A stretch of DNA of 32,000 nucleotides. Source: Geotalea uraniireducens Rf4. Its GTDB lineage: Bacteria; Desulfobacterota; Desulfuromonadia; Geobacterales; Geobacteraceae. The notes beneath the pieces are model-generated. The model did not search any database and had not been told where the DNA came from. It worked only from the letters and a program-made list of their open reading frames with translations. The stretch spans positions 4,680,001 to 4,712,000 of the forward strand of contig NC_009483.1 of the NCBI RefSeq assembly GCF_000016745.1. The letters run 5' to 3'. Below are positions 8,337 through 24,722 of this stretch, in pieces; positions within the stretch are counted from its first letter, which is position 1, and the number at the start of each line of letters is the position of its first letter. Position numbers and translations under genes: made by a program.

Positions 8337-8360
8337 CAACCGACAGTTCCGGAGTCGTCC

Positions 8361-9368: not shown

Positions 9369-10577
9369 ATGCTGACCTACAATTTAATTCACGAAGCCGC
9401 CGACCGGCTGAAAAAAAGGGTGCGGCGCACCGAGCTCATCCACTCCCACCACTTCAGCGAAAAGCTCGGCATCCCCATCTTTTTCAAATGCGAAAACCTG
9501 CAGCGGACCGGCGCATTCAAAATTCGCGGCGCCCTCAACTTCATGACCGCCCAGCCGCGGGAAAACCTCAGGAACGGTGTGATCACCGCATCAGCAGGGA
9601 ACCATGCCCAGGGGGTCGCCTTTTCCGCCGATCTGCTGGGGGTGAAGTCGATGGTGTTCATGCCGGAAAGCACCCCGCCCCAGAAGGTCTTTGCCACCAG
9701 GGATTACGGCGCGGAAGTGGTATTGACGGGAAAGAACTTCGACGAAGCCTACGCAGCGGCACTTAAGGCTCAGAAAGAAACCGGCGCCCTTTTTGTCCAT
9801 CCTTTTGACGATCCGCTGGTAATGGCGGGTCAAGGGACCATCGGCCTGGAGATACTCGACGAGCTGCCGGACCTGGCCAACATCCTTGTCCCCATCGGCG
9901 GTGGCGGGCTTATCGCCGGCATTGCCACTGCCATCAAGCAGACCCGTCCCCGGGTGAGGATCATCGGCGTCGAATCGGCCGCTGCCCCGTCCATGCACTT
10001 TTCCCTGGAAAAGGGTAAAATCACCGAAACACCCCTCTCCGTCACCCTGGCCGACGGCATTGCCGTAAAACGGGTGGGAAAGAACACCTTCCCCATTGTC
10101 CGTGAACTGGTTGATGAAGTGGTGCTGGTAGAGGAAGAGGAGATCGCCCAGGCGATCGTCGCCCTTCTGGAGCGGAGCAAACTCCTCGTCGAAGGCGCCG
10201 GGGCGGTCACCCTGGCGGCACTGATGAACGGCAAGGTTGAGCATGTGACAGGCAAGACCGTCTGCCTTTTGTCGGGCGGCAACATCGACGTAAAGACCAT
10301 CGCTATCGTGGTGGAAAGGGGGCTCCTGGCAGCGGGACGCTACCTGAAGCTGAAGGTGGAGTTGGATGATGTGCCGGGATCGCTGGCGAAACTCTCGACT
10401 GATATCGCGGCAACCAACGCCAACATCTCGCTGATCACCCACGACCGGCGCTCCAAAGCGCTCCCCATCGGCCGGGCCGAGGTGCTGCTGGAGCTGGAGA
10501 CGCGGGGGTTTGACCATATTCGGGAGGTGGTGGGTTACCTGGGCGAGCGGGGGTATGAGGTGGAGGTGCTGAAGTAA
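9369..10577 (+). CDS. ilvA: Threonine ammonia-lyase (threonine dehydratase), short form with one C-terminal ACT-like domain
   Basis: 402 aa. It has the PLP-lysine region FKCENLQRTGAFKIRGA, ASAGNHAQGVA and the glycine loop PIGGGGLIAG. Confidence 0.9.
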   Translation: MLTYNLIHEAADRLKKRVRRTELIHSHHFSEKLGIPIFFKCENLQRTGAFKIRGALNFMTAQPRENLRNGVITASAGNHAQGVAFSADLLGVKSMVFMPESTPPQKVFATRDYGAEVVLTGKNFDEAYAAALKAQKETGALFVHPFDDPLVMAGQGTIGLEILDELPDLANILVPIGGGGLIAGIATAIKQTRPRVRIIGVESAAAPSMHFSLEKGKITETPLSVTLADGIAVKRVGKNTFPIVRELVDEVVLVEEEEIAQAIVALLERSKLLVEGAGAVTLAALMNGKVEHVTGKTVCLLSGGNIDVKTIAIVVERGLLAAGRYLKLKVELDDVPGSLAKLSTDIAATNANISLITHDRRSKALPIGRAEVLLELETRGFDHIREVVGYLGERGYEVEVLK

Positions 10578-10773
10578 GGCAGGTCAAGGTCAGGTTTATT
10601 GTCAGTCGAAGAGCTTCAGTTTTGAATGGCGAGCGGTTTCCGCGAAATGCCCGTCGCGGGTGAAAAGATGGAAGGTTACCTTCTTCCGCCGGGTTACGAA
10701 AATCCGCAGAGAGCGGGCTTTTTGTGGGATCGCGCGGGGAGGAAGGAAATATCAATGGCCGTCAATTGTGTAA

Positions 10774-10845
10774 AACGAGAGAACTGAAGTAATCGCGGTC
10801 ATGCGCGACAAGCTGATCCGTGAGTACTTCAATGGCCACACCTGA
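10774..10845 (+). pseudogene. Possible C-terminal remnant of a HepT/DUF86-type toxin gene
   Basis: A short open frame reads NERTEVIAVMRDKLIREYFNGHT*. It resembles the conserved R-x4-H-x-Y region (MRNKLIHEYF-like) of DUF86/HepT proteins. There is no start codon and no upstream body. Confidence 0.3.
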
Positions 10846-11016
10846 CCTGGAATATAGTGCCGGTTCGCACGTGCCAATGTTAATGGCCCTTTTTTGCCTG
10901 CAAAAACGTGTCTCTAAGGCTGGAAATGGGGTCTATTATGGCCAATTTGTCTATTAATTATAGCAGGTTAGCTTGGTCCGACCCCAGAAGAACCCAGCAA
11001 CATACAGCTTCATGCC

Positions 11017-11721
11017 TCAAACATCCAACCCCGCCCCATGCTTCCTCAGCCACTCCTTCCGTTCGCGGTATGCAGGAATGACCTTGTCCACCTCGTTCCA
11101 AAAGGCATCGGTGTGGTCCAGGTAATGGAAGTGGCAGAGTTCGTGGACCACGATGTAGTCTATGATCGTCTGCGGGGCCATCATGCACTTCCAGTGGAAG
11201 GCAAGGTTGACGCTGGGTGAGCATGAGGCCCAGCGATTGCCCAGTTCTCGGACATCTATGTCACGAGGGGTGACCCCAACCTTGGGCGCGTAGTAGTTCA
11301 CGCGTTGGGTTATCCTTTCTGCTCCACGGGCAATGTAGTAGTTACGAAAGGCTGCTTTTGCAGCCGCTATCGCCCCTGTATCCACCAGGTCACGCCGCAG
11401 GCAGAAACGTCCGTTCTTCAGCAGCAACGGTTCCGTCTGATCCGCCACGAGCAGCAGCCGGTAGGAGCGCCCCAAGTAGAGAAACCCCTCGCCGTTCTTA
11501 TATTCCCGCAGCACGCGGGTGGCGTTGAGATCGCGCCACTCGGCGAGGTTCTTGTAAATCCAGTAGCGCTTGGCCTCGACCATGTACTCTATCCGCTCAT
11601 CGGGGATCGACTCGGGCGCCCGGACCAGTACACGACCATCGCGTTCAATGACGATGTCCGCCGTGGCGCGGTTGCTACGCACAATTTCGTATGAGATGTC
11701 CTTGGCCCAGGTCGCCTTCAT
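11017..11721 (-). CDS. DUF45/YgjP-like (M48/SprT-type) zinc metallopeptidase
   Basis: 234 aa with an HELCH (HExxH) motif near the C-terminus (VVHELCHFHYLDHTDAFW). Its ATG overlaps the hsdR stop in an ATGA at 11718-11721. Confidence 0.85.
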   Translation of the reverse strand: MKATWAKDISYEIVRSNRATADIVIERDGRVLVRAPESIPDERIEYMVEAKRYWIYKNLAEWRDLNATRVLREYKNGEGFLYLGRSYRLLLVADQTEPLLLKNGRFCLRRDLVDTGAIAAAKAAFRNYYIARGAERITQRVNYYAPKVGVTPRDIDVRELGNRWASCSPSVNLAFHWKCMMAPQTIIDYIVVHELCHFHYLDHTDAFWNEVDKVIPAYRERKEWLRKHGAGLDV

Positions 11722-14700
11722 CGTGTCAGCTCCTGGTGGCGTTTTTCGGCGAGCTTCACAATCTCCACCGCGATCCGTTCGTGTTTGTCGATGAGTTGCG
11801 GGATCTCGGTCAGCAGGATCTCGGTGTCGATGTTCCCCCGAAGTTTCTTTACCTCGATTGGCTTCTTCCAGAAGTCGATGATGCCGATAGTACCTTGCAA
11901 CATCTCCACGATGCCAGCCATCAGCCTCTTCAACTGATGCCGATGATTCCCGGGCACTTCGCCATTCTCGAAAGCGAGCTGCACCACGTAGTCGTAGAAG
12001 GTGGTAGCCTCCCTGGTCAAGCCTTCCTCAGCATCCGTCCGGCCCGCCAGGGCTTCGCTTCTGAGTTGTTCATACCCCTCGGCCAGCACCTCCCATTGGT
12101 TCTTGTGCTCCTGGATCAGCTTTTCCAGCTTCTCGCTCAGCCGCTTGTAGAAGGCCGGGTCTTCGTCGAAGTGGATTGTGCAGTGTTTGCGGATGGCATG
12201 CTCCATCTCACTCGCCTTCGCCTCCGGGTTTCCCTGGGAATGCTTCTGCACATTGGAGATGAAGTCGTCCGACAGAAGCTCTATGGGGGGGATCTTGGGA
12301 TTTATCCCCAGGTCGATAAGGTGCTCGTTGATCAGCGCTTTCACCTTCTCACCGGCGTCGGAGATGTCGAGGGAGTCGTCCTTGTAGCGCTCCTTGACCA
12401 TGCGGAGGAGATAGCCGAAACGCCTTGCCGGGCCGCGGTAGGGATGCCCCGACGCGTGGGGGAGGATCAGGTTCAGGCTTTGGAGATACTTCTTCAGGTA
12501 GACCTCGAAGTCCGCCCGGCGCTTGATGTCCTGCATCGCTCCCACAGCCGCATGCACCACGGCCACGTCAGACTCTGGTGTTGCCAGTTCACCCTTTACG
12601 AAGGCTTCGATCTCCCCTACCCCGGCTGCGCGGAAATGCTGCAGGAGACGCTGATAGCGTTCTTCCAGAATCGGCAGTTCGGTGAGCCGGTTTTTCAGCC
12701 CTTGCTGGATGTCTTCTGCATCCTCATCGGAATAGATGCTGAGCGCCTCCATCAGGTGGTTGGCCAGGCCGATGTAATCGACGATGAACCCCCGGTGCTT
12801 GTTCTTCGTCACCCGGTTCACCCGGGCAATGGCCTGTAGCAGGTTGTGCTCGCGCAAACGCTTGTCGATATACATCACCTGCTCAACCGGGGCGTCGAAG
12901 CCGGTCAGCAGCATGTCACAGACGATCAGGAAGGCGATTCCAGTCAGATCCTTGTCCGGGTCGTCCAGATCAAAAGGTTTGCAGAAGTTCTCCACCGCGT
13001 TCCAGCGTTTCGCCTCCTTGCGCGCCTCGGTGATGGCGGCCAGTTCGTTGGTGGCGTCAGCGGAAACCACTACCACGGCCTTCAGGAAGGCGATGCGGCG
13101 AATCAGTTCGGTGTCGGGCTTCTGTTTGAGCTTCTCCACGTCAAGGCGCTCGGCCAGGGCTTCACGGATCGATTTCTGATAGCGGATCGCCGCCAGCTTG
13201 GAGTGGCAGACAACCTGCGCCTTGAAACCGTCGGGGAGGATGTTGTCGACGTAGTGCGTCACCAAGTCGCGGGCAATGGCCGCAATGCGCTGCTCGGCTT
13301 CCAGGATGTCGCCGCTGGCGCCATATTTCTTCTTGATGACGAGGAGTTCTTCTTCGCTCCGGTTCTTGAAGAGGTCTTCGAACTTGGTGTCGAAGCCGTG
13401 CTTGTCCTTCAACGCCGTGTCCGCCGTGCGTCCTTCGTAGAGAATCTGCAGCGTCGCGCCGTCATGCACCGCGTCCATCAGCTTGTAGGTGTCGATGTAT
13501 TCGCCGAAACGCTTCACCGTGCGCTTGCTGCCGTGTTGCTCGGAGATAAGCGGGGTGCCGGTGAAGGCGATGCGGGTAGCGTTGGGGAATGCCTCGAAAA
13601 TGTTTTCACCCAGGTCGGAGCCTTGCGTCCTGTGCGCCTCGTCAATCATCAGCAGGATGCGTTCGGACGGATTGACCACGCCAAAAGTTGCTCCGGACGG
13701 CGGCGGGCGGTAGGCTGCAAGCGCCTCGGCAACCATGGTCGGCAGCGCTTCGGCACGTTCCATGAACTTGTGTACCATCACCATGTTAATGTCGGAGGTA
13801 TCGGTACTCAGGTGCTCGCGCAACGCTGCCGTACTCTCAATCACATTAACCTTGCCGCCGATCAGCTTGGCAGTGGCTGCAAGTTGATCCTCCAGATCGA
13901 CGCGGTCGTTGACCAGCAGGATCTTGAAGTCGGCCAGGTCTTGTGATGCCCGCAGCATGCGGGCCACGAAAACCATAGTCAGTGACTTGCCCGAGCCCTG
14001 GGTGTGCCAGACGACGCCAGAGCGCTCCTCTGATGTCTTGCCGGTGCGCAGGCGCTCAACGATCCGGTGGGCAGCGCGGTACTGTTGGTAACGGCAGACC
14101 ACCTTCACCCGCTTGCCGGAGTCGGTATCCATGAAGACCGTGCAGGTGCGCAGCACATCCAGGAGCGTCGTTGGGGCGAGCAGCCCCTGGATCAGCCGCT
14201 CCTGTTCGCGCTCGATCCCCAGCGGCGGCGTGTAATTGCGGTTCTCCTCCGGCCAAATGTCCTTCCAGGCGTAGAAGTGCTCGTGGCCCGAGGTGATGCT
14301 GCCAAACTCCGCTTTCTCGCCACAGGTGCGTATCAGCAGCAAATTCGTGTGGAACAGGCGCGGCTCTCCTTCGCGCAGGCCGGCAGCAGCCGTTTCCGGG
14401 CGGCCGTTGCGGTAGCGAAGCAGTTGCTCGAAGGCGGCGTGCATCGGGTTGGCCGTGGTGGCGTCGCCGATCTTGGCCTCGATCACCACCAGCGGGATGC
14501 CGTTCACAAAGAGTACGATATCCGGGATGATGCATTTCTTCACGTAGCCGGGCGTGTCGATGCGGAACTGGTTGATGGCGTGGAACTGATTGCGCTCGGG
14601 GTGGGAGAAGTCAATGAGCTGGACCACAGGATCTGGCTCGCCGCTGATCTCATTGCGATCCACTTGTGCCTTGAGGAAGAGCGCCTGTACCGCCTCGTTG

Positions 14701-14972
14701 GCTTCAAGCAGGGTACGGTTTGGCTGGCGCAGGATTTGTGACCGGAGGTCATCGAGTTGGCGATCGGTCAGCCAGGGGGTACCGTCGGCGGTGCGGTTGA
14801 TGGCGCGCACGGCATTGTGGAAGACATCAGGGAGCAGCCATTCGCGGAAGGTGTCGCGCAGGCTGGCCGTAGGATCGGAGGGGATAAACCCCTGACCTTG
14901 GTCGATTACCGTCCAGCCCAGTGCGGCGAGCTGGTCAAGGAATGGTTTTTCTACGTGGAGATATTCAGACAT
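11718..14972 (-). CDS. hsdR: Type I restriction endonuclease subunit R
   Basis: The preferred start is the ATG at 14972 (MSEYLHVEKPFLDQLAALGW). The N-terminal nuclease motif is DIVLFVNGIPLVVIEAK. Helicase motif I is HTQGSGKSLT and the DEAH box is LLMIDEAHRTQ. The long C-terminal domain is typical of HsdR. The 69 codons upstream (to 15179) overlap the PIN-like gene and look non-coding. Confidence 0.95.
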   Translation of the reverse strand: MSEYLHVEKPFLDQLAALGWTVIDQGQGFIPSDPTASLRDTFREWLLPDVFHNAVRAINRTADGTPWLTDRQLDDLRSQILRQPNRTLLEANEAVQALFLKAQVDRNEISGEPDPVVQLIDFSHPERNQFHAINQFRIDTPGYVKKCIIPDIVLFVNGIPLVVIEAKIGDATTANPMHAAFEQLLRYRNGRPETAAAGLREGEPRLFHTNLLLIRTCGEKAEFGSITSGHEHFYAWKDIWPEENRNYTPPLGIEREQERLIQGLLAPTTLLDVLRTCTVFMDTDSGKRVKVVCRYQQYRAAHRIVERLRTGKTSEERSGVVWHTQGSGKSLTMVFVARMLRASQDLADFKILLVNDRVDLEDQLAATAKLIGGKVNVIESTAALREHLSTDTSDINMVMVHKFMERAEALPTMVAEALAAYRPPPSGATFGVVNPSERILLMIDEAHRTQGSDLGENIFEAFPNATRIAFTGTPLISEQHGSKRTVKRFGEYIDTYKLMDAVHDGATLQILYEGRTADTALKDKHGFDTKFEDLFKNRSEEELLVIKKKYGASGDILEAEQRIAAIARDLVTHYVDNILPDGFKAQVVCHSKLAAIRYQKSIREALAERLDVEKLKQKPDTELIRRIAFLKAVVVVSADATNELAAITEARKEAKRWNAVENFCKPFDLDDPDKDLTGIAFLIVCDMLLTGFDAPVEQVMYIDKRLREHNLLQAIARVNRVTKNKHRGFIVDYIGLANHLMEALSIYSDEDAEDIQQGLKNRLTELPILEERYQRLLQHFRAAGVGEIEAFVKGELATPESDVAVVHAAVGAMQDIKRRADFEVYLKKYLQSLNLILPHASGHPYRGPARRFGYLLRMVKERYKDDSLDISDAGEKVKALINEHLIDLGINPKIPPIELLSDDFISNVQKHSQGNPEAKASEMEHAIRKHCTIHFDEDPAFYKRLSEKLEKLIQEHKNQWEVLAEGYEQLRSEALAGRTDAEEGLTREATTFYDYVVQLAFENGEVPGNHRHQLKRLMAGIVEMLQGTIGIIDFWKKPIEVKKLRGNIDTEILLTEIPQLIDKHERIAVEIVKLAEKRHQELTR

Positions 14973-15000
14973 GATTTTCCAATCAAAAAAACGACCCAAG

Positions 15001-15507
15001 TTACCTGCGCCACTTTTTGATCCTAAGTTCACATTCGTGCAGAGGGAGGCGACTGGTCCCTCTCTCAATAAGCTTTTCCAGGCGATCGGCCGCCACGCCG
15101 GGGAGCAGCGCACCACGGGCGAGAAGTATATCAAAAACCCACAGCAGCCCATGTGTTTCGATACCGCGTTCCTCGGCATGCTGCCTCAACCTCTTGTCAC
15201 CGGTCAGCAGGATGCTTTCCAGCTTGCCGGCAAAATACAGGGCCGAGACATCTTCGATTGTTACCCGCGACGAGAGAAGCGCCTGAAGTTGCACGATCTC
15301 GGTAAGAGCCTGCGCCCCCACCGCTTCGATCCCGAACCGGCCCTCATCCACAAATCGCTTCAGTTTGATCTTCTGGTTCTTGCGGTTGACCTCACGCCAG
15401 ACGAGCGTGGTCGTGCGCAGATCAAATCCCAGCCCGAACCAGGCGTCCAGCAGGTCACAGTCAGCCATGTCAATGAGGACCGATGCATCCTGGATGATGA
15501 CTTTCAC
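15001..15507 (-). CDS. PIN-like domain nuclease (DUF3368/DUF4411-like), candidate toxin/effector
   Basis: The GTG start at 15507 overlaps the upstream stop in a GTGA. The N-terminus VKVIIQDASVLIDM, later REV, EDVSAL and LLTGDKRL give the four spaced acidic positions typical of PIN folds. About 168 aa. Confidence 0.65.
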   Translation of the reverse strand: MKVIIQDASVLIDMADCDLLDAWFGLGFDLRTTTLVWREVNRKNQKIKLKRFVDEGRFGIEAVGAQALTEIVQLQALLSSRVTIEDVSALYFAGKLESILLTGDKRLRQHAEERGIETHGLLWVFDILLARGALLPGVAADRLEKLIERGTSRLPLHECELRIKKWRR

Positions 15508-16586
15508 AGAAACTCGCTCAACGTCTGTTGGAACTCCACCAACGACACGTTGAGCAGGGCAGCGCCCTTGTCGAAGCTGATCTGTTCTTCCGCCGTAGCC
15601 CGCAGGACCAGCTGTTCGAAGCGGCTGGATTGCTCGGTGCCGATGTATTTCCCCGGCTCGTCGCGATGCCACCCCTTTTTCTTGCGGATGATGCTGAACT
15701 GGCGGTACGTGGAATCGTCGATCAGCTTCAGGTCGTGGGCTCGGTGCATGATAGCCGCGATCGACATGCCATAACGCCGCTTCAGGTCAATCAGTTCCTC
15801 CAGGCTGATCCGGTGCCGGAAGCCGCCCCAATCCGACGTAAAGACCTCCTTGGGGATCAGCATGGCTCCTGCGAAGCGGTTGCAGAACGCTTCGAGTTCC
15901 TTGCCGCTCAGGTCGGTGTGCGGGGCCACCAACAGATGCGCCGCCTCGTGCAGAGTTGTGAAGCGCTTGCGGGGCATGTCCTTATTCAGCCAGGTTGCCA
16001 GCACGATCACTGGGTGGCCGTCGGCCCACCCCGAGAAGCCGTCGAAGCTCTCCGGCGCCTCAACCTCGAAGATCTTGAAGCCGTTGGTCTCCAGGGTTTC
16101 GATGACATTCGGCAGCGGGTCCTCTCCCAGCTTCCAGTGTAAGCGGACCTTGACAGCTGCCTCCTCCGCCTCTTCGGGTCGGGTGTACCTGACATGCCCC
16201 AAGGGATCGCGGAAGCGGGAGGGGAGCCCCAGAATCTGTTCGATCTCGCAGTACCGCTCGAAAAAGTCGGTGGCCAGCTCCTTGACCGCATCCTCGGACT
16301 TGGCCCCCAGGCCGGTGGTCTTGCGGAAGCGCAGCTCCCGCAGTTCCACCGTGAAGGGGCGGAAGAAGAAGTCCAGCGGCTTGTCCAGCACATCCGCCAC
16401 CGGAATCAGGACATCGTCGCTCGGCATCATCTCCCCGCACTCGTAACGGTGCAGGGCGTTGTAGGAGACCTTACCTCCGATGGCCTCGGCCACGGCCCGC
16501 AGTGACATGCCGCGCATGCGTCGCGCCTGCGAAAGCCGCCGGCCGAAAATCTCTTTCGGGTCCTGTTGTTTCATGGTCGTCTCCAT
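15504..16586 (-). CDS. XRE-family HTH domain fused to an ImmA/IrrE (COG2856) zinc metallopeptidase domain
   Basis: 360 aa. The N-terminal HTH is FGRRLSQARRMRGMSLRAVAEAIG..SYNALHRYECG. The HEAAH (HExxH) motif is at residues 213-217, in the LHEAAHLLV context typical of ImmA/IrrE. Confidence 0.85.
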   Translation of the reverse strand: METTMKQQDPKEIFGRRLSQARRMRGMSLRAVAEAIGGKVSYNALHRYECGEMMPSDDVLIPVADVLDKPLDFFFRPFTVELRELRFRKTTGLGAKSEDAVKELATDFFERYCEIEQILGLPSRFRDPLGHVRYTRPEEAEEAAVKVRLHWKLGEDPLPNVIETLETNGFKIFEVEAPESFDGFSGWADGHPVIVLATWLNKDMPRKRFTTLHEAAHLLVAPHTDLSGKELEAFCNRFAGAMLIPKEVFTSDWGGFRHRISLEELIDLKRRYGMSIAAIMHRAHDLKLIDDSTYRQFSIIRKKKGWHRDEPGKYIGTEQSSRFEQLVLRATAEEQISFDKGAALLNVSLVEFQQTLSEFL

Positions 16587-16626
16587 TTTCTGTTCCCGCC
16601 TCGGTGTACAGAAAACATTTCATTGC

Positions 16627-16666
16627 ATGTTGACAAATTTATCATTATTTTATATTTTGTCAACAT
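16627..16666. promoter_or_regulatory. Symmetric divergent promoter/operator
   Basis: Perfect 11-bp inverted repeat: ATGTTGACAAA (16627-16637) and TTTGTCAACAT (16656-16666), with an 18-nt AT-rich spacer. Each arm contains a consensus TTGACA -35 box facing outward. The -10-like TATATT/TATTTT (+) and TAAATT/ATAAAT (-) lie in the spacer. Confidence 0.5.
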
Positions 16667-16693
16667 AACCATTTCACATTAGGGAGAATGATC

Positions 16694-16909
16694 ATGGCCA
16701 AAGATGCACCCGGAATGCGCGGCATTCGCAGCAGGAACGAGGATGAACAGCTTCGCCAGAAGCGGGGCGATACCCACGTCGGAACTATTGAGAAGATGTA
16801 CGGTCTGGACTTTGATGCCCGCAGTGATATGCACCTTCATACCTTGCTCCAGCGTGAGGGGGTTCAGTCGCTGCATGAGTTGATTGAGAGTGGCAGCGAC
16901 CGCAATTAA
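16694..16909 (+). CDS. Small hypothetical protein (71 aa), divergent from the XRE-ImmA gene
   Basis: A GGGAG RBS at 16682-16686 sits 7 nt before the ATG at 16694 (MAKDAPGMRG...). I recognise no family. The stop is 14 nt from the pAgo stop (convergent). Confidence 0.45.
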   Translation: MAKDAPGMRGIRSRNEDEQLRQKRGDTHVGTIEKMYGLDFDARSDMHLHTLLQREGVQSLHELIESGSDRN

Positions 16910-16923
16910 TCACTTCGAATAGG

Positions 16924-18345
16924 TTACATGAAAAACCGGAATTGATAGGGCGCACTCCCCAATCCACTCATGCGTTTAACAACCCGTGCAAGCACCTTTG
17001 AGTACCCGATGGTTACGGGTAGTGGGTCATACAAGGCGTCGTTATTCCAGTTCATCTTAGTAAGCGCAAGAATAGCGAGTGCAGCCTCATCCCAAGACCC
17101 ATGGCCAGCGTGTCGCACCAAGCGCAACGGCCGAGGAGTGCTTCGAGCCCCTTGAAAATATGCCCCCCGATCACTGATTCCGCGGACATCACCATGCGTC
17201 CACAATAATGCTTCACGCGATCCCAAGCCAATGAGGGTGCCCCGTGAGACAGGGAAAGAAGCAGGTTTGCCTTTTTTAGTCTCTTTATCGAGGTCGATCC
17301 GGATGCCACGCCATCCAACGTCTTCGACGATTTGCACCAAGTCAACCGCCTCGCACAGGTGAAGGGCCTCCATACAACCGTCAATCTCGTCTTGTTTGAA
17401 TTCGGTGGTCTTGTGGACCATCACACGTCGGGGGGAGCGGCCCGCATGCCGACGGCGGTATAGATCAACGGAGCGAGTCATAACTCTGAACATCTCAGTA
17501 CGCGAGAGGAATGGATTTTCGCGCTGAACTTCAACCTCATGGGCATCGTAAGCGACGAACTCCAGGCCAGAGCCCTCAGCATCGAAGACCTGACTACAAC
17601 AAGTAACAAAGCGCGAACGGCCCGAGTCTGGCGGGCGAACTGCGTAAGATATGCCTATATAGGCCGTCTCAGCATCGGTCTCTGCCAGCTTCCAAGGTAC
17701 TCCACCAGCTTTTGCGTAGAGCGCCAGCCCAATACGCCACATTACGCTGGCGCGGTGCGGGTAGGCTAGAGCTTTGTCCTCGCGCACAAACTGAACGGGG
17801 AGTCGACGTGCAGCTGTGGCGGCCTTCAGATGGTCGTGCAGATCAAAATCCTCGCCATGACTTCCTGTGTAGCCGGGGGTCCAGCGCTGGGGAATATAGA
17901 TAAACAGCACATCAAATTTGTCACGGTGTGCTTCGAGTGCCTGGATCTTACGGATTAAGCGGTCAGCTAGTACAATGTGCGGCGTTGAGGAAGCATGAAA
18001 CTCGGCCTCAAATTCTGTGTCGAGTTCTATGTGACAGCCCGCACCAGCCCCTCGCATATGGAGGCCGAAGACGCTATGAAAACCCGGCCACTCTGGAAGA
18101 TATTCGGCACGTTCGGTCGCCTTGACTACAGAGTTGAGTTCTTTCATAAAACCGTAAAGGTGGCGACTCTCGCCGGCTGGGGCTATGGTGGCAACCCGGA
18201 TTGGGTCAGGCACCAGACCACTTGAATGTGGTCCGAATCTCAGCAGTCCGCGTAAAGGATGAATATCTTGATCTGATTGACGATCCGGATGAAAAGCCAG
18301 TTTAGGTTCTGGTAGCCAAATGTGAGTGGAAATTTCGCTACTCAT
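16924..18345 (-). CDS. Short prokaryotic Argonaute (MID + PIWI only), predicted catalytically inactive
   Basis: At 473 aa it is too short for N/PAZ domains. The MID-like 5'-end pocket segment is DLHDHLKAATAARRLPVQFVREDK (H/K/Q/K pattern). PIWI landmarks are AKAGGVPWKL and YIGISY. By eye, the positions of the DEDX catalytic residues read S233 (IGIS instead of IGID), T313 (HKTT instead of HRDG) and K450 (YSKVLA instead of YA[D/H]LLA). The ATG overlaps the SIR2-APAZ stop (ATGA at 18342-18345). Confidence 0.9.
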   Translation of the reverse strand: MSSEISTHIWLPEPKLAFHPDRQSDQDIHPLRGLLRFGPHSSGLVPDPIRVATIAPAGESRHLYGFMKELNSVVKATERAEYLPEWPGFHSVFGLHMRGAGAGCHIELDTEFEAEFHASSTPHIVLADRLIRKIQALEAHRDKFDVLFIYIPQRWTPGYTGSHGEDFDLHDHLKAATAARRLPVQFVREDKALAYPHRASVMWRIGLALYAKAGGVPWKLAETDAETAYIGISYAVRPPDSGRSRFVTCCSQVFDAEGSGLEFVAYDAHEVEVQRENPFLSRTEMFRVMTRSVDLYRRRHAGRSPRRVMVHKTTEFKQDEIDGCMEALHLCEAVDLVQIVEDVGWRGIRIDLDKETKKGKPASFPVSRGTLIGLGSREALLWTHGDVRGISDRGAYFQGARSTPRPLRLVRHAGHGSWDEAALAILALTKMNWNNDALYDPLPVTIGYSKVLARVVKRMSGLGSAPYQFRFFM

Positions 18346-20081
18346 ACCCCAGCCCTCCTTGAAAAACCTGTAATATTGGAAAGGCTAAAGACGGCATCGA
18401 CCCCACCTCCGATATCTAACGCACGCAGGTCTCCTCCGCCGGAGAGCAGATCAGCCCAAAATACGATTAGATCGTTGAGTTGCTTATTATAACGCTTGAC
18501 AGTTCGCTCACGGGCGAAATCGGCGGCAGCCGCCTTGTTCTCGTCGTTAATGCCGTCGAAGACCGTGCGGGGTTCTATCAGAAGCCACAAGCGTTCATCA
18601 GCCCAGTCAAGCCGAGTACCGATTCCTTCGCGCCAATGCAAACCGGGGAAACCGCTGACCGTACCGTTAAGTGATCCTACAAGCTGCTTTAGAGGTGCCC
18701 AGACACTCTCTCTTGGGTCCGATGGTGCTAACAAATCAGCACTTCTCCGACGAGTTGCGTCCAATCGATGATGGCGTTCTAAAGCACGGGTAAGTGCACT
18801 GCGTAACAGGCCACGCTCGCCGGAATCGTAGCGCAGTCGCTTGTTGTCGATGGTATGTAGGTCAAAATCAGTAATGTTGTAACCACCAAAAGCTGCACGC
18901 ACGTCGCCATCGGCTCCAAAGGCCAACACGCCAGCCCGAGTGCGAGCAACGAGGACGTCAACGCCAGCCTGCTTGACAGCTTCCCGTGCTTCTGCGTGGC
19001 CGCCGATCTCACAGACAACGCGTCGACATACTGTTGGAATTTGTACGACAGGTATTGCATTGAGGCGCACCACCGGCCAGCCTCGTTTTCCTCCTGGCGG
19101 CGGGGCGCTACTCCAGCGGCGGCGCTCGGCTGCGAAGGTGTCGAGTATCGTGGTGTCGATGCTTTTTACCATTCGCACCAAGTCTCGCATTGCCTCATCG
19201 AAGTTTTGAACCCTTATCAGTGCTGACTCCACTCCAGCCTGTTTCGCTCGCGCCAGCAATTGTTCAACTCGGGCGAGCGGTGGATCTTCCCCGCGATGCA
19301 GCCAGAACAATCCGGAAGGGTAAGCGCCATTTTGTTCCAGCACCTCCTCCAGTGCATCCATAATGGAATCGTCACGGCCACTGTACCCGACTACAACAAG
19401 TCCAAAGCGTTTGCAGGAATCTACTAGAAGTTGCCTTAAACGTTGATCTTGGTAACGCAATTCATCACCAGTGTTTTTGAGTCGCCGAGATCTGAAGTCT
19501 CCATGCAACTTTACCTCGATTGGCCATCTTCCTCCTCCTATGCACTGAGCAGCTAAATCAGGCGCTTCGAGAGCAACAGTCGTGAGTGGTCCTGTTCCGT
19601 CATATACCTTCGCACAAGCATCCGCCACGAGTGGATCGAAGTTGGTTGTCCACACCAAACGCGTAAGTTGTGCATGCATCAGAGAAGCGAGGGCCAAGTG
19701 TCCATAGGACAACTTTGCTCCACCCATTTTGGCATCCAAATAGGCGCGACGATCCGACTCTGCAGGATAAACTGCTTCAAAAAGTGCTGCGTACTCGTCC
19801 GGGGAGCCGGGAGAAGGCAAACTCCCTGAGGAATCAACGTAGGCCTGTAACTGAGCACGAATTGTGGGATTCGACAGATCGGCCATAGACTGGTGCGAAA
19901 CTCGTCGTTGGCTGATGAATAGTTGCTGCTTAAACTCCCAGACCATATCTCCGGCAGTGGGTATCCCAGCTGAGGCCGATGCACCGGCACCGAGTAGCCA
20001 CATCAGGTTCCCAGCCCGTAAAGAAAAACGTCGAGCAAAATCATCCGCTTCTATCGTAGGCACATTGTTCCCTTTACCCAT
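18342..20081 (-). CDS. SIR2-APAZ fusion protein (SIR2_2-type NADase domain + APAZ domain), partner of the short pAgo
   Basis: 579 aa. SIR2_2 landmarks are the glycine-rich LLGAGASASAGIP (31-35), TTNFD (145-149), KLHGD with His193, and VGYSGRDD (231-238). The C-terminal ~280 aa has no recognisable enzymatic motifs, consistent with APAZ. It lies 23 nt downstream of hsdS. Confidence 0.9.
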   Translation of the reverse strand: MGKGNNVPTIEADDFARRFSLRAGNLMWLLGAGASASAGIPTAGDMVWEFKQQLFISQRRVSHQSMADLSNPTIRAQLQAYVDSSGSLPSPGSPDEYAALFEAVYPAESDRRAYLDAKMGGAKLSYGHLALASLMHAQLTRLVWTTNFDPLVADACAKVYDGTGPLTTVALEAPDLAAQCIGGGRWPIEVKLHGDFRSRRLKNTGDELRYQDQRLRQLLVDSCKRFGLVVVGYSGRDDSIMDALEEVLEQNGAYPSGLFWLHRGEDPPLARVEQLLARAKQAGVESALIRVQNFDEAMRDLVRMVKSIDTTILDTFAAERRRWSSAPPPGGKRGWPVVRLNAIPVVQIPTVCRRVVCEIGGHAEAREAVKQAGVDVLVARTRAGVLAFGADGDVRAAFGGYNITDFDLHTIDNKRLRYDSGERGLLRSALTRALERHHRLDATRRRSADLLAPSDPRESVWAPLKQLVGSLNGTVSGFPGLHWREGIGTRLDWADERLWLLIEPRTVFDGINDENKAAAADFARERTVKRYNKQLNDLIVFWADLLSGGGDLRALDIGGGVDAVFSLSNITGFSRRAGV

Positions 20082-20104
20082 AGCAATTCATCCTTGCTGG
20101 AAGG

Positions 20105-21391
20105 TTAAATTTCGGTACGTTCAAACACTTGCACGTTACCTGTCATGAGGTCGTGCATGAGGCCGCGTTTGATTAGTCGATTCACGGACTGACTTTCATT
20201 AAGAGCACAAATATTCATTTCCATCCATTCCAGCCGCTCAACAATTCGCACCTGTTCATCTAAATCACAAAAAGGAAAAAACAACCCTTCCATAACCGAG
20301 TTGTTTAAACTCGGCATTGTGGTTCCAACGGCTCTGCCTACGATCTGCCGCTGCACAAAATCTTGTCGGTAAACTTGAGCTGCAAAGTCTGCCGTCAAGG
20401 CGCTCTGTCCTAAGCGTAGTAAGAAGCACCCTGTCCCACAAACCCAACCCTGCTCTGACTCTCTGATTGCTGCTGCACGTGAAAGATCGCCTCGTCTGGC
20501 AATTACCATGTCACCAAGACTCATTCGATGCCGCGCTAAATCATTGGCACGTGCCTCGTGAATTCGGGCGATATTCTCTGTGCCAATCAATCCATTGTTG
20601 ATGTCTTGGGGCATCACGACTGGAACACCTTCGGCCTGATATTCATGAGCATGGAGCTGACTGCCAAAAGGCCCAGTCTGAAGGTATCCACCGCATTTAC
20701 GTAAGATGTTTCCCAGTCTTTCGACCTCCCACTCCTTCGGAATCCACCCAAGCGGAGATTCTTTGTAGAGGCCGGGCGCATGTTCGCGTGTGGGACGAAG
20801 GTGGCCGTCGGGGGTGACGCCACGGGTGAACAGGTCGTGCATCAGCCCAGCCTTGACCTGCTGCATCTTCGCAATCAGCACCTCGGTCTGCTCAATTGTT
20901 TCGTCCAGTGTTGAGAGGATTTCAGCGATGCGGCGCTGCTGAGGAAGTGCTGGCAACTCCACCAAGTAAGCAACGAGGTCGGAGCGGATTATCCCATTAA
21001 TGCTCGTTCCTTGGTTCAGTTTTTTGAGGTCTTCCACTCCCTGACGCATTCGATGAAAAAGGAACGATGTAGCAACCTGATTATCATCGACGTAAACTCC
21101 AGTGATGTCTTGGCTGATGGCGATGTCACATGGGGCAATGGCAATTTTTCCGACTCCTGTGCGGGTGACCAATAACAATTGACCTTGTTGAATCACATTT
21201 GTAGCCGACTGCCTGACAGCCTCCTCCGAGACGAAGCGCCTGAATTCCCCGATGCCAGATGGCGTGAAGTCGGCTCCAGTTATCCAAGGTATGTTTCCAT
21301 TCCAGTAACGGTCTATATCAGTCGACGGGGTTCCACCGTTTACAATCTTTTTGGCAATTTGACCAAACGGAACAGTAGACCACTCACTCAT
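20105..21391 (-). CDS. hsdS: Type I restriction-modification specificity subunit S
   Basis: 428 aa with two target-recognition halves. Each half is followed by the conserved helical spacer ([25 protein letters not shown]...[11 protein letters not shown] and [14 protein letters not shown]...[11 protein letters not shown]). The start overlaps the hsdM end by 8 nt. Confidence 0.9.
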
Positions 21392-23858
21392 ACCCCAACT
21401 CCACCAAAAACCCCTTCAACTTCTCCGCAGCCAAATCCCGCCTGGCCTCAATGTCCTTGACAGTAACGGCATATTTCCCATGCAGATTCTCCAGCGCAGC
21501 AAGACACGCCCGCTGGTCGGCCTGCAGATACCCTTCATAGGTCTGCACCAGCAGGCGACGCAGCCGGTCGAGGATGACACGACGGGCTGCATCGTGGTCG
21601 ATCTTGTCTCGGGCGGCAGCAACGAGATCCTCCTGTTTCTTCTCCGTGGCACGCAGCTCTGCTTTCAACTGCTTCCCCTCATCCTCCAGCGCTTTGTGCC
21701 GGGCAAGACGTGCCTCCGCGGCTTGGGCGCGGGCTGTGAAAGCCGTGGCGTCCCGGTTTTCCCGTTTCGCCAGCTTGGCCTGGGCATTGGCCTCCTTGAG
21801 TTCGGACTTGAGCGCCTTGACATCCTCGGCGGGGAGGACTCCGGTGTCGTCGCTGTCTTCGTAATCCTCTTCATCGGCGGCGGCAAAGAGAGCCGAGAGT
21901 TCGGCTAACCGCAGGCGCTTCTGTTCCATGTCGGCCAGGAGTTCCGGGAACTGGCTCTCCAGGATGTCGGCGTCGGGAATCAGTTCCGGCCCCCAGCCGC
22001 TGGCGGCGATGGATTTGAGATCTGCCTTCAGGTCATCCATATACCGGGCAAAGGCACCACGAATCTGGTGTTCGGTCAACAGGCCCTGCCCAGAAAAGGT
22101 CAAGGCGATGGTGGCAAGAAGCCCACGGCGCAGTTCATAGACATTCCCCTTCTGGCCGTTCCTGGGGGCGAGATCTTCAATCAGCGGCAGGTTCTCCACC
22201 CACCACGTTTCCAGTGTCTGCAAAAAGCGGCTCTGCGCCACCACCACGCCAGGGTCGGTTTTGACCAGTTCGGCCAAAGTTCGTCGATCGGTGACGGCAG
22301 GGGTGAAATCGGCATAGAGGGAATCGCCCGGACGCGGTACAAAACAGCGCTCTCGCAGACCAGGATAGTTGGTCCAGTAACGGGCCATGGCCTCAATCTC
22401 AACGGTCGGAACCCCGCCGTGCAGGTGGGCACGCACGTCGTGGGGCTCGGGCGGCGGGGCGTTGTCCACATAGCGGCGGATATTGCAGTTGTAATCCTCG
22501 ACTTTGATCTCGCTCACCGGCACCCGGCGAGCGTAGCCGGGCACGTCCGCCATGGTACGGTAGGCGTGGACGATCTTGGAAATATCCTCTGGACGCAGGA
22601 AATTCTGCGCCTTCCCTTCACGATATTCCCGGTCGGCATTGATGAAGAAGACGTGGTCGCGCACGTTATCACCCGAACCGGCGTCCTTTTTGTTCATCAC
22701 CAACACGCAGGCAGGGATGCCTGTGCCGTAAAAGAGCCCTGCGGGTAGACCGATTACCGCCTCCAGCCAGCCGTGCTCTATGAAGTGCCTGCGCGCCGCC
22801 TTTTCCTCGCCTCCCCGGAAGAGCACGCCGTGGGGCATGACGGTGGCCATCTTGCCGTCGGCCTTGAGCACGGCCAGCATGTGCTGGACAAACATCAGGT
22901 CGGCCTTTTTTCCCTTTTCCGGAAGCCAGACGGCGAAACGGCCGGGATAGTCGATGTCTTTTTTTATGTAGTTCTGACTGAAGGGGGGATTGGCAAGGAC
23001 GCGGTCGTGTCGTTGCAGTTCATTGTTCTCTGCCTTGTGTTGCGGGTGACGCAGGGTGTCCTCCTGGCGGATGTCGGCGTGCTCGATGCCGTGGAGGAGC
23101 ATGTTCATCTTGCAGATGGACCAGGTGGTGCCGATGCTTTCCTGCCCGGCAAGGGCGAGGTCGCGAGGATCACCGCCACATTCGCGGACATAGTCGCGGG
23201 TCTGGATGAGCATGCCACCCGAGCCGCAGGTGGGGTCGTACACACTCATGCCAGGCTGGGGATCAACGATCTCGACCAGGGTGCGCACCACATCGGCCGG
23301 AGAGTAGAACTCTCCCGCCTTCTTGCCGGCGGAATCAGCGAAATATTTGATCAGGTATTCGTAAGCCGCCCCGAGCAGGTCAGGGAACTCAAAGTTTTCG
23401 TCGCGAAGCGGGATCTTCTCGAAGTTCTGGATGAAGTTGGCAAGTGTATCGTCGTCAAGGGAACGCTGGCCGATCTTCTTGTTGAAGTTGATCCCCTTGA
23501 GCACGTCCTGCAGAGCATCAACGTTTGCGTCCTCCAGCGCTTCCAGCGCCTTGTTGAGATTAGTGCCGACATTGGTCTTGAGGTGGCGGATATTAGACCA
23601 GTGAGCCTCTTCCGGCACGAAAAAAGTGTATTTATCCGGGTTGTTAAGCTGGCCAGCGATGACCGCCTCGGCCATCCCCTTTTCTTTTAAATCTTTGGCG
23701 AGCTGTTCCCGCTCCTGGTCGAAGAGGTCGGAGAGGCGTTTCAGGAATAGCATTCCGAAGATATATTCTTTATATTCAGAGGCGTCCATGTTGCCGCGCA
23801 GGTCGTCGCAGGCGCGGAAGAGAAGGCTGGAAAGTTGGCTGAGGGTGAGTTTGGACAT
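21384..23858 (-). CDS. hsdM: Type I restriction-modification N6-adenine DNA methyltransferase subunit M, with a ~355-aa C-terminal extension
   Basis: The HsdM_N-like N-terminus is [32 protein letters not shown]. The AdoMet motif is [12 protein letters not shown] (206-217) and the catalytic NPPF is at 290-293. The canonical end NIRRYVDN is at about residue 466. An extra region through residue 824 follows and is rich in charged heptad-like sequence. Confidence 0.95.
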
Positions 23859-24002
23859 CAGGTAATTACTCCGGAGTTATTGGCAGGGGTGTTATACTGG
23901 GTGCAAATGTAGCGCTCGGAGAGGGATTTTTCATGGATAGGCACAATTAACAAAATAATGTCAAAATTACAAGAAGATAACCTACTGTCAGCACCACCGG
24001 CT

Positions 24003-24692
24003 TTAAGCCGGTATGCTGAATGGTGGCAGTTTTTTGATAAACTCTCTGGTCATCGGTGCTCCACTCCCTTTATCCAGCAGCCCCGGACGCCGCAAATCCT
24101 CGACAGTGTCCACATCATACCAGCCAGGGAGCAGTCCAATAGTGATCCCCGCCTCTGCCCCCCTGGCCAGGCTCAGGTTCAGTACCTGGTCGCTGCTCCA
24201 GGGGACATCCCGAAACAATCGGCAATACACTCGTTTCATTGCCAACAGGTAATACCCCCCGTCCTCTGTTGGGCCAATAACCACATCGACGCCGTTCTTC
24301 TCCAGCCTCTGAAAAGCTACATCCAGGAACCCAACCGGCAGGTCCGGCGAATCGGTGCCGATGATTGCCACTGATTCGTAGCCATGTTCAAATGTGCGCT
24401 GAAATGCATCCATCATCCTCTCGCCCAGATTGTTACCACGCTGGGGGACGGTCTCCATACCGGCGGCTATCGTTGCGAAATAGGATGCCGCGTCTCCATT
24501 GCCTTCAAAAAACAGGTAAATATCTACACCCTCAAGCTGCTTAACCTTGGACAAGGTGTCGATGAGCATGCAGCGATATAGTTCCGCCGCTTCTTCGGGT
24601 GATAAAACCGTAGTAAGTCGGGTTTTAACCTTTCCTGCAATTGGCTGCTTGGCAAAAACAATTAACGCGTTATTATTATGTCGCATTTTCAA
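24003..24692 (-). CDS. DUF2064 / TIGR04282-family glycosyltransferase-like (nucleotidyltransferase-fold) protein
   Basis: 229 aa. The N-terminus ALIVFAKQPIAGKVKTRL and internal VAIIGTDSPDLP are characteristic of DUF2064. It lies 30 nt downstream of folE2. Confidence 0.7.
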   Translation of the reverse strand: MKMRHNNNALIVFAKQPIAGKVKTRLTTVLSPEEAAELYRCMLIDTLSKVKQLEGVDIYLFFEGNGDAASYFATIAAGMETVPQRGNNLGERMMDAFQRTFEHGYESVAIIGTDSPDLPVGFLDVAFQRLEKNGVDVVIGPTEDGGYYLLAMKRVYCRLFRDVPWSSDQVLNLSLARGAEAGITIGLLPGWYDVDTVEDLRRPGLLDKGSGAPMTREFIKKLPPFSIPA

Positions 24693-24722
24693 TACAGGGC
24701 CATGAAGGCAAAATATTTAGCC

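Follow-up and report, generated by a model that had tools for sequence, protein, structure and literature searches.

The window, a 32,000-nt stretch of Geotalea uraniireducens Rf4 (NC_009483.1, positions 4,680,001 to 4,712,000), contains a locus that is best read as a Type I restriction-modification (R-M) carrier with two defense cassettes lying end to end at a recombination hotspot, the hsdS|hsdR junction. One cassette is a SPARSA block (SIR2-APAZ and short pAgo) and the other a Rosmer-like XRE-ImmA/PIN module. We give a probability of roughly 0.78 to this reading, in which the systems act in parallel and are expressed as at least two units. Along the minus strand, hsdM is followed by hsdS, SIR2-APAZ, short pAgo, a small ORF on the opposite strand, XRE-ImmA, PIN, hsdR, and a YgjP/DUF45 peptidase gene. 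By ORF coordinates, hsdM and hsdS overlap by 8 nt, hsdS and SIR2 are separated by 23 nt, there are 4-nt overlaps at SIR2/pAgo and at ImmA/PIN, a 28-nt gap lies between PIN and hsdR, and hsdR overlaps the DUF45 peptidase gene by 4 nt; the distance from hsdS to hsdR is 5132 nt. These nine genes and all of these spacings had been given in an earlier note on this DNA, and were found to be correct when ORF coordinates and profile matches were re-checked. The features discussed below are:

23864-23966, minus strand: region upstream of hsdM, a candidate promoter or regulatory site, with TTGACA at 23966-23961 as read from the sequence
21384-23858, minus strand: hsdM, methyltransferase subunit, 824 aa, a long form with a C-terminal extension of ~350 aa
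20105-21391, minus strand: hsdS, specificity subunit, Pfam Methylase_S in two stretches corresponding to two target-recognition domains
16924-20165, minus strand: cassette 1, the SPARSA block, comprising the hsdS 3' tail, SIR2-APAZ and short pAgo, from the blastn identity profile
18342-20081, minus strand: SIR2-APAZ, by homology an NADase effector with a pAgo-binding domain, 579 aa, Pfam SIR2_2
16924-18345, minus strand: short pAgo (MID-PIWI), 473 aa, PADLOC pAgo_I with E 5e-199
14998-16911, minus strand: cassette 2, the three-gene Rosmer-like module of small ORF, XRE-ImmA and PIN
16688-16909, plus strand: small ORF, 71-73 aa across loci, divergent from immA
16626-16666, no strand assigned: predicted palindromic operator ATGTTGACA-N21-TGTCAACAT, within which lie the -35 boxes of a divergent pair of sigma-70-like promoters
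15504-16586, minus strand: XRE-HTH and M78 (ImmA/IrrE) zinc peptidase, an RmrA-like antitoxin/repressor, Pfam HTH_3 and Peptidase_M78
15001-15507, minus strand: PIN-like nuclease (DUF3368 family), putative toxin/effector, GTG start
14984-15012, minus strand: weak hairpin followed by U7, a possible leaky terminator, fold energy -7.1 kcal/mol
11718-14972, minus strand: hsdR, restriction and translocase subunit, 1084 aa
11017-11721, minus strand: YgjP-like/DUF45 zinc metallopeptidase, Pfam YgjP-like with E 1e-55, HELCH at residue 193

Judged by its domains and motifs, the hsdM-hsdS-hsdR set is a Type I R-M system. HsdM carries Pfam N6_Mtase (E 4e-96) and HsdM_N domains with NPPF at residue 290, and matches PADLOC MTase_I over its full length (E 1e-246), while PADLOC Specificity_I spans residues 2-421 of HsdS. 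HsdR combines the Pfam domains HSDR_N, SWI2_SNF2, ResIII and T1R_D3-like with DEAH at residue 444, and scores 428.6 bits against a cutoff of 284.55 with the NCBIfam hsdR model (E 4.5e-128). The hsdR start was placed at ATG 14972 (MSEYLHVEKPF...), which aligns with the start of every homolog; the longest ORF begins at 15179. Identity to the HsdR homologs (n=80) ranges from 71 to 93%.

The arrangement hsdM-hsdS-[variable]-hsdR-YgjP characterizes a Type I family that is widely transferred and occurs in many phyla, as seen in a comparison set of 80 related loci, 55 of which were assessable at the hsdS|hsdR junction. The earlier note had proposed looking for 'empty' orthologous loci, and 15 of the 55 are indeed empty, with hsdS and hsdR overlapping or ≤10 nt apart (an 8-nt overlap in 11 of them); the other 40 hold cargo of 758-9176 nt (median 2.6 kb). 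Cargo ORFs run co-directionally in 107 cases vs 23 in the opposite orientation, and the cargo families found elsewhere include AbiEi/AbiEii, Dsr1, GmrSD-like (HEC-05/06), PDC-M05A/B, NsnAB and Schlafen-ATPase, with a C1-C0 gene pair adjoining hsdR in 11-12 loci. The YgjP peptidase gene lies 3' of hsdR in essentially every related locus with a long enough contig. Two loci with the hsdS and hsdR nearest to those of the window, L004 and L067 (hsdS 83-84% and HsdR 91-93% identical at the aa level), carry wholly different cargo. Remnants of the hsdR 5' end occur within the cargo of L005, L008 and L075, and L175 holds a Fic-like_C remnant. As for an integron-like array, the island encodes no integrase, and neither its ends nor the cassette junctions showed repeats.

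The two cassettes have separate histories. The SIR2-pAgo block is 96.5% identical in nucleotide sequence to that of L014 and about 95-100% identical per 200-nt bin to that of L172 (one bin at 90%), whereas the flanking hsdM and hsdR are only about 81-84% identical. The last ~60 nt of hsdS (20105-20165) move with SIR2-pAgo, as shown by a blastn breakpoint at 20165 in L014, L172 and L092, and the right edge of the cassette is exactly the pAgo stop, where identity to L172 falls from about 95-100% to about 72-86% per 200-nt bin. What accompanies SIR2-pAgo also varies, being a TIR protein in L014, a Schlafen-ATPase in L088/L089 and a 445-aa protein in L090/L091. Cassette 2 aligns as a single block (window 16911-14998) to the stand-alone L173 at 79% nucleotide identity, and also to L175, L005 and L057; in L173 and L174 the ImmA-PIN module is complete and stands away from R-M genes. 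Because homologous junctions are empty or differently filled and the cassettes are independent, the proposal that hsdR has been parted from hsdMS by foreign cargo is supported. On these sequence comparisons, both blocks are embedded cassettes, lying between R-M subunit genes at a site that is empty or otherwise occupied in homologs. The breakpoints and scars suggest that the cassettes arrived independently of each other and that diverged R-M carriers swap cassettes, with the conserved 3' end of hsdS and 5' end of hsdR serving as recombination arms.

Cassette 1 has the hallmarks of SPARSA, with a short pAgo gene directly downstream of SIR2-APAZ. The SIR2-APAZ protein matches PADLOC Aga_SIR2-PNTD1-PNTD2 (E 5e-199) over model positions 1-557 of 558, and its residues 13-550 align to GsSir2-APAZ (E 6e-72). 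The catalytic Asn/His dyad is retained as N147 (TTNFD) and H193 (HGDF) in alignment with 8jl0_A/8in8_B, corresponding to N142/H186 in Gs. The APAZ region is C-terminal to SIR2, with homology to GsSir2-APAZ extending to residue 550 of 579 (the Gs APAZ comprises residues 331-587). The pAgo matches the Piwi protein of PDB 8in8_C over its full length (E 1e-111), residues 3-473 aligning with GsAgo 6-473. The dyad residues of the characterized GsSir2/Ago, and its activation by an RNA guide and a DNA target, have been described (PMC10781750). By homology with GsSir2/Ago, the SIR2-APAZ/short-pAgo heterodimer would load small RNA guides and recognize complementary invader DNA, and once activated would deplete NAD+ and cause abortive infection.

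In cassette 2, the XRE-ImmA protein matches PADLOC RmrA (E 4.5e-55, residues 16-355) and carries HEAAH at residue 213; a match to the NCBIfam spr1629 repressor/antitoxin model (E 1e-30) is under that model's cutoff. Its partner gave no match in a direct Pfam scan; however, PF11848 is present on 75 of 75 homologs in precomputed matches, and the protein is 100% identical to the record 'PIN domain-containing protein [Geotalea uraniireducens]'. Among its acidic residues, D7, E39 and D86 never vary, D126 hardly varies, and position 104 holds either D or E (D104 in the window). An AlphaFold model (pLDDT 93.3) compared with the PDB returned PIN/VapC-type proteins at ranks 1-17 and RNA-free RNase P from rank 18. 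The earlier designation of this protein as PIN-like is thus borne out by PF11848 in homologs, the acidic residues and the predicted fold matches. In PADLOC the PIN protein matches no RmrT model and gives a single marginal match, to PDC-S70 (E 1e-3), so that the module has the HTH and zinc peptidase antitoxin of RosmerTA and lacks an RmrT-family partner. Nor does the PIN gene have a VapB-type antitoxin partner, the upstream partner being the XRE-M78 peptidase protein. That protein probably binds the palindromic operator and probably neutralizes the PIN-like nuclease until a phage cue frees it. The small divergent gene, which would complete the cassette, is constant in position and 76-92% identical (aa) in L005, L172, L173 and L175, and has no Pfam, PADLOC or NCBIfam match. 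The earlier note described it as convergent, which holds with respect to pAgo; it is divergent from immA and a member of the ImmA-PIN module.

The earlier note also envisaged a single co-transcribed or co-regulated island, and here the data point elsewhere. Promoters and terminators were called by consensus matching only. A divergent pair between the small ORF and immA (10/12 matches each, at 16630-16658 on the plus strand and 16663-16636 on the minus strand) comprises the only strong sigma-70-like promoters found by consensus scan in 14 kb, sigma-70 rules possibly fitting Geobacterales poorly, and the enclosing palindrome is kept in 7/7 loci with the ImmA-PIN module. This conserved palindrome with divergent promoters suggests that immA-PIN, and probably hsdR-YgjP, have a repressible promoter of their own. 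Because this promoter lies inside the island, upstream of immA-PIN-hsdR, a single co-regulated unit is doubtful; it is not established and is partly contradicted. The small gene also runs against the pAgo unit. As to terminators, their reported absence inside the runs stands in the consensus scan (12 sites against a chance expectation of 13.0 ± 3.7), but the stretch from the PIN stop to the hsdR start contains a weak hairpin with U7. This hairpin was not called by the consensus terminator scan and is not visibly conserved in the folded PIN-downstream regions of L057, L175 and L005; as predicted from sequence, it could limit read-through and leave hsdR poorly expressed. The region upstream of hsdM gave no match in the promoter scan, and a 10-nt palindrome, ACTCCGGAGT (repeat I21), covers the hsdM RBS. 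Most likely, hsdM-hsdS-SIR2-pAgo is transcribed from P(hsdM), and immA-PIN from an auto-repressed P(immA) that the cassette itself brings, with transcripts reading through into hsdR-YgjP.

We considered whether XRE-ImmA/PIN might mainly be a switch for restriction, with hsdR-YgjP induced together with the PIN toxin from P(immA) once infection or DNA damage is sensed by the peptidase. On the minus strand, P(immA) is the one consensus-like promoter that precedes hsdR, the PIN-hsdR gap is short, and in the window, L057, L175, L005 and L172 the module lies upstream of and near hsdR or what remains of it. However, the stand-alone modules of L173 and L174 have no R-M genes beside them, genes or remnants intervene between PIN and hsdR in L005, L172 and L175, the weak hairpin precedes hsdR, and empty loci with hsdR translationally coupled to hsdS need no such regulator; we regard this explanation as unlikely.

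Another hypothesis joins R-M, SPARSA and ImmA-PIN into a single co-regulated pathway, with pAgo loaded or activated by substrates or signals arising from restriction of invading DNA. The tight co-directional spacing and the lack of a strong terminator are consistent with this, as is the finding that one pAgo sub-lineage (85-99% identity) directly follows hsdS in six or more related R-M loci (L014, L172, L092, L088/L089 and L090/L091). The stable linkage of this sub-lineage with the R-M family is real, and its repeated occurrence (≥85% identity) might be due to selection for functional synergy and not to hitch-hiking. However, more distant pAgo homologs, at 72-84% identity, almost never occur in this family: 28 of 29 assessable metagenomic loci lie outside it, and in four of four genomes with homologs at 82-84% no Type I genes were found nearby. 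Among the 55 HsdR-anchored loci only one holds a pAgo, and the internal promoter and convergent gene part the two halves of the locus. The suggestion in the earlier note that restriction fragments feed guide acquisition finds no support, since the characterized SPARSA homolog is activated by guide RNA and target DNA rather than by DNA-fragment guides and 28 of the 29 pAgo relatives are found elsewhere. A single pathway is accordingly improbable. We are similarly doubtful that the resident pAgo lineage is retained by epistasis, either through HsdR cleavage and resection exposing ssDNA targets that lower the SPARSA threshold or through hsdR being under a phage-sensing XRE-ImmA switch; if true, the island would be one integrated inducible immune circuit instead of three parallel systems.

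It is very improbable that the insertions, by uncoupling hsdR from hsdMS, are turning the R-M into a methylase-only system with unrelated cargo: L172, which keeps the same two cassettes with a shortened hsdS and an hsdR of 38 codons, indicates that such arrays can lose hsdR, but in the window hsdM, hsdS, hsdR and YgjP are full length with NPPF, DEAH and HELCH intact, HsdR is 87-93% identical to its closest full-length homologs, and intact architecture coexists with cargo in 40 loci. On the preferred reading, of two cassettes embedded in a four-gene Type I carrier, the three systems would act side by side as layers of immunity, inherited and transferred together as a block, rather than as a mechanistically dependent pathway.

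Given that hsdS-hsdR embedding, SPARSA and ImmA-protease/PIN modules have all been described already, the window is a clear example of documented embedding and not a new kind of system. Its value lies in being a clean natural case of defense stacking and cassette exchange in a Type I R-M operon, with exact boundaries, empty reference sites and recombination scars, in what is apparently a cultivable, genetically studied Geobacterales species. It offers a tractable setting for asking whether embedded systems share transcription with their carrier and whether physical linkage brings synergy, and the R-M family, spread across many phyla, provides a ready list of uncharacterized embedded defense candidates, such as the C1-C0 pair.

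Coupling between the nuclease PrrC and its R-M system is both physical and functional; nothing in the window indicates such a tie to the R-M. EcoprrI/PrrC and the Campylobacter rlo loci are classic precedents, in which a Type I hsd operon hosts a nuclease or Abi gene; PrrC occurs almost only within Type I R-M (as cited in Payne et al., 10.1101/2024.01.29.577857), and RloF, of the Campylobacter rlo genes inside hsd loci, is cited in the TgvAB paper (bioRxiv 10.1101/2024.04.04.588119). The latter describes TgvAB inside a Type I R-M cluster of Vibrio cholerae VPI-2, and Payne et al. (2024), in their 'guilt-by-embedding' survey, report frequent embedding in Type I R-M, BREX and DISARM, with 17,432 embedded genes. 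The window resembles these cases in having a second, mechanistically independent defense system within a Type I R-M cluster, and GmrSD-like cargo, as found there, also occurs in relatives of the window R-M; the cargo types of the window itself differ, and a term search of the main text of Payne et al. found neither pAgo nor RosmerTA named among the embedded cargo.

The EPEC E2348/69 RRDM island (RptR-HsdM-HsdS-DarT/DarG2-HsdR-M48 metallopeptidase), whose hsdS|hsdR site has already been termed a potential recombination hotspot (PMC12255303), likewise has a toxin-antitoxin-type module between hsdS and hsdR and a zinc metallopeptidase gene after hsdR. Unlike RRDM, with its DarTG2 cargo, the window has two stacked cassettes (SPARSA and ImmA-PIN), one of which carries its own bidirectional promoter, and has no rptR upstream of hsdM, where 144 nt separate it from the neighboring gene.

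The GsSir2/Ago SPARSA of Geobacter sulfurreducens (PDB 8in8 and related; PMC10781750, PMC11452484) shares with cassette 1 an overlapping two-gene operon and the Asn/His dyad, with similar sizes (SIR2-APAZ of 579 aa vs 587 aa in Gs, pAgo of 473 aa in both). In contrast, the predicted SPARSA of the window is a clearly diverged, distinct ortholog and sits directly after hsdS in an R-M operon. In RosmerTA, RmrT toxins of various kinds are paired with RmrA, an HTH-Zn-peptidase antitoxin (Millman et al. 2022; Ernits et al. 2023, PMC10440598), and the NetFlax network associates ImmA-protease antitoxins with PIN-like domains. Cassette 2 resembles RosmerTA in that its XRE-HTH and M78 protein matches RmrA and its gene shares 4 nt with the toxin-like gene downstream, and differs in its PIN/DUF3368 partner, a putative toxin outside the PADLOC RmrT models, and in its third, small conserved gene, which is divergent.

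The reading of the island (11017-23858) put forward in the earlier note is partly supported: insertion into a Type I R-M operon at a hotspot holds, co-regulation is unproven, and the feeding of guides to pAgo by restriction is unlikely. Every reported gene and spacing was borne out when ORFs were listed, domains scanned for and the sequence itself inspected.

21384-23858, minus strand, hsdM (824 aa)
20105-21391, minus strand, hsdS
18342-20081, minus strand, SIR2-APAZ
16924-18345, minus strand, short pAgo
16688-16909, plus strand, small ORF
15504-16586, minus strand, XRE-HTH/M78 peptidase (XRE-ImmA)
15001-15507, minus strand, PIN-like protein (GTG start)
11718-14972, minus strand, hsdR
11017-11721, minus strand, YgjP/DUF45 peptidase

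Within the island there are overlaps of 8, 4, 4 and 4 nt and gaps of 23 and 28 nt, and hsdS lies 5132 nt from hsdR. The hsdR start was placed at the ATG at 14972, which matches residue 1 of all homologs; the longest-ORF start at 15179 was ruled out because the homolog alignment begins at this ATG. The motifs NPPF (HsdM), DEAH (HsdR), HEAAH (ImmA) and HELCH (YgjP) are undamaged. Pfam domains of HsdM stop at residue 466 of 824, and the C-terminal ∼350 aa (21384-22460), without a Pfam match, are conserved within the R-M family; the PADLOC model MTase_I PDLC03031 matched full-length. Almost every related locus, in a wide range of phyla, has the YgjP/DUF45 zinc peptidase gene overlapping hsdR or no more than a few tens of nucleotides away from it; the gene behaves like one for a fourth subunit of these Type I systems. 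Housekeeping genes flank the island, ilvA-like on one side and DUF2064, folE2, queC, rpoD and dnaG on the other. DUF2064, folE2 (GTP cyclohydrolase) and queC adjoin it (24003-26278), with rpoD and dnaG beyond, and the adjoining three are probably housekeeping genes of queuosine or 7-deazaguanine synthesis. The window holds no tRNA genes and no Rfam families, and thus no evidence of a tRNA-targeted integrative element.

An HsdR-anchored scan with one genome per species yielded 80 loci (HsdR identity 71-93%) from Desulfuromonadales, Geobacterales, Nitrospirota, Verrucomicrobiota, Planctomycetota, Acidobacteria, Myxococcota, Spirochaetota and others, as well as the proteobacterial groups Thiobacillus, Burkholderiales and Thiocapsa. 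They share the frame hsdM-hsdS-(variable)-hsdR-YgjP, and the flanking synteny of the window (ilvA-like, DUF2064, folE2) is absent from all 80. At the 55 loci where hsdS and hsdR are both visible, the junction is empty in 15, of which 11 have an 8-nt overlap of hsdS stop and hsdR start (ATGTCTGA) and the remaining 4 a spacing of -1 to 10 nt. Cargo fills the other 40 junctions; it spans 758-9176 nt, with a median of 2.6 kb, and naive ORF calling gives 107 cargo ORFs in the direction of the R-M genes versus 23 opposite. This cargo is modular, the same cassettes reappearing in differing combinations; C1-C0, AbiEi-AbiEii, PDC-M05A/B, split Dsr1, GmrSD-like genes and a Schlafen/AlbA_2-HATPase_c_4-Fic-like_C protein recur. 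L004 and L067 (hsdS 83-84% and HsdR 91-93% at the amino acid level), the R-M relatives that come nearest in these two genes, have cargo wholly unlike that of the window: L004 carries Dsr1 and GmrSD-like genes, L067 a split Dsr1 and others. With the junction empty at some related hsd loci, the kind that the earlier note had proposed to seek, and differently filled at others, its view of an operon split open by insertions is correct, and the gene order of the window is not ancestral.

The first insertion is a SPARSA cassette. Its pAgo matches the Argonaute of Geobacter sulfurreducens SPARSA full-length (PDB ID: 8in8_C, E 1e-111), and SIR2-APAZ aligns to GsSir2-APAZ over residues 13-550 (E 6e-72) and keeps, as its N147 and H193, the SIR2 catalytic dyad defined in PMC10781750. 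Window positions 20165-16924 are 96.5% identical at the nucleotide level to the related locus L014, versus 81.9% for hsdM and 81.4% for hsdR-YgjP; against the related locus L172, SIR2-pAgo is ∼95-100% identical per 200-nt bin, with one bin at 90%, and identity is ∼72-86% past the pAgo stop. The left breakpoint falls within the conserved 3′ end of hsdS, ∼60 nt in, and the right one at the pAgo stop codon. Its neighbor varies between R-M loci: a TIR protein in L014, a Schlafen-ATPase in L088/L089 and a 445-aa protein in L090/L091.

The second cassette, small ORF-ImmA-PIN (16911-14998), aligns as a single block to L173, a stand-alone copy with transposase and ParE genes around it and R-M absent nearby. 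Another copy, L174, lies beside a DDE transposase, and R-M hotspots hold it in L005, L057, L172 and L175. Its XRE-M78 protein matches the PADLOC models of RmrA, the RosmerTA antitoxin (E 4.5e-55). The partner protein had no Pfam match in our own scans at E up to 5, and its assignment as a predicted PIN-like nuclease comes from homologs and a structure model: PF11848 is precomputed on all 75 homologs, their alignment has invariant D7, E39 and D86 and only D or E at position 104, and in searches with the model (pLDDT 93) the top 17 PDB matches are all VapC/PIN-type and RNA-free RNase P enters at rank 18. It is 100% identical to a database entry, 'PIN domain-containing protein [Geotalea uraniireducens]', and PIN-like domains paired with ImmA-protease antitoxins have been noted previously (PMC10440598). 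The small ORF encodes 71-73 aa, is always divergent from the XRE-ImmA gene and has orthologs of 76-92% identity in L005, L172, L173 and L175. Searches of Pfam, PADLOC and NCBIfam matched it to no family; the module seems to have it as a third component.

Remnants at the hsdR side point to how cassettes may be exchanged. Truncated hsdR 5′ ends lie within the cargo arrays of three related loci, L005 (4503-4814, 107 codons), L008 (8177-8426) and L075 (4332-4403); in L172 hsdR is reduced to 38 codons (8782-8895) with both cassettes retained, and in L175 a Fic-like_C remnant of 63 aa adjoins hsdR (8287-8478). These pieces resemble scars left where recombination replaced one cassette by another, from which we infer that exchange may proceed through the conserved hsdS 3′ and hsdR 5′ sequences. 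An integron-like mechanism was rejected because no integrase is present and no meaningful direct, inverted, att-like or attC-like repeats flank the island or the cassettes.

The earlier note had also raised co-regulation of the whole 12.8 kb. In a consensus scan of 10500-24500, the sole strong sigma-70-like matches are a divergent pair at 16630-16663, within a palindrome, ATGTTGACA-N21-TGTCAACAT, that provides both -35 boxes. The palindrome is kept in 7 of 7 loci with the module, L174 included despite 54-69% protein identity, and is predicted to be the operator through which the XRE domain would be expected to regulate its own gene. A predicted promoter of its own thus serves the downstream half of the island, and the small gene reads toward the pAgo 3′ end; expression as one co-regulated unit is accordingly unproven and in part contradicted. 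Read-through within the island may occur, and there is no terminator between pAgo and the small ORF. The 28 nt between PIN and hsdR contain a weak hairpin (-7.1 kcal/mol, an imperfect 7-bp stem followed by U7; 14984-15012), not called by the consensus terminator scan, that could reduce the transcription reaching hsdR from upstream. Terminator-like matches in that scan were at chance level and inside coding sequence and were not counted as transcription-unit ends. At the other end of the island (23864-23966), a consensus TTGACA lies ∼100 nt 5′ of hsdM and a perfect 10-nt palindrome, ACTCCGGAGT, covers the hsdM ribosome-binding site; L014 and L004 conserve the ∼20 nt directly 5′ of hsdM. Elements in this stretch may control translation or transcription.

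Whether pAgo profits from R-M was judged from its relatives. All examined pAgo homologs of at least 87% identity directly follow hsdS in the R-M family of the window; this placement is found in the window, L014, L172, L092, L088/L089 and, at 85%, L090/L091, and the L093 homolog (86%) lies outside the family. One SPARSA lineage was therefore captured and then spread with or among R-M carriers, a pattern that fits hitch-hiking on a mobile carrier but would also allow selected synergy. Real epistasis between R-M and the embedded systems, or inducible control that they share, seems to us improbable. A general association of SIR2-pAgo with R-M was rejected after pAgo-anchored scans: in 4 genomes with homologs at 82-84% the pair sits beside giant helicases, integrases or housekeeping genes, and of the metagenomic loci whose upstream sequence is long enough, 29 in all, only L092 (89% identity) belongs to the window's R-M family. 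Restriction fragments are unlikely to feed guides to pAgo, as the earlier note had suggested they might, since characterized SPARSA uses guide RNA and target DNA (PMC10781750).

The insertion of cargo at the hsdS/hsdR site is already known, as are SPARSA and Rosmer-like ImmA/PIN modules. The EPEC RRDM island carries cargo between hsdS and hsdR, with an M48-type peptidase downstream at the position taken here by YgjP/DUF45, and its authors called the site a potential recombination hotspot (PMC12255303); TgvAB of V. cholerae is likewise embedded in Type I R-M (bioRxiv 10.1101/2024.04.04.588119), and a survey of BREX, DISARM and Type I R-M systems counted 17,432 embedded genes (10.1101/2024.01.29.577857). 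Newly added are the exact boundaries and the stacking of two cassettes, a near-identical SPARSA cassette common to diverged carriers, the hsdR 5′ scars within cargo arrays and a predicted cassette-borne promoter upstream of hsdR.

Further embedded candidates are the 351-aa TIR_2-domain protein of L014 (8916-9971) and the 445-aa protein of L090 (6480-7817) and L091, which has no confident family match. The commonest cargo, the C1-C0 pair, always abuts hsdR and occurs mostly in Verrucomicrobiota (L027:8127-9997, L042, L044, L030, L034, L036, L055, L059 and others); it encodes proteins of ∼348 aa, with a weak MarR/IclR-type HTH, and ∼281 aa, without a Pfam, PADLOC or NCBIfam match, and is an embedded defence candidate.
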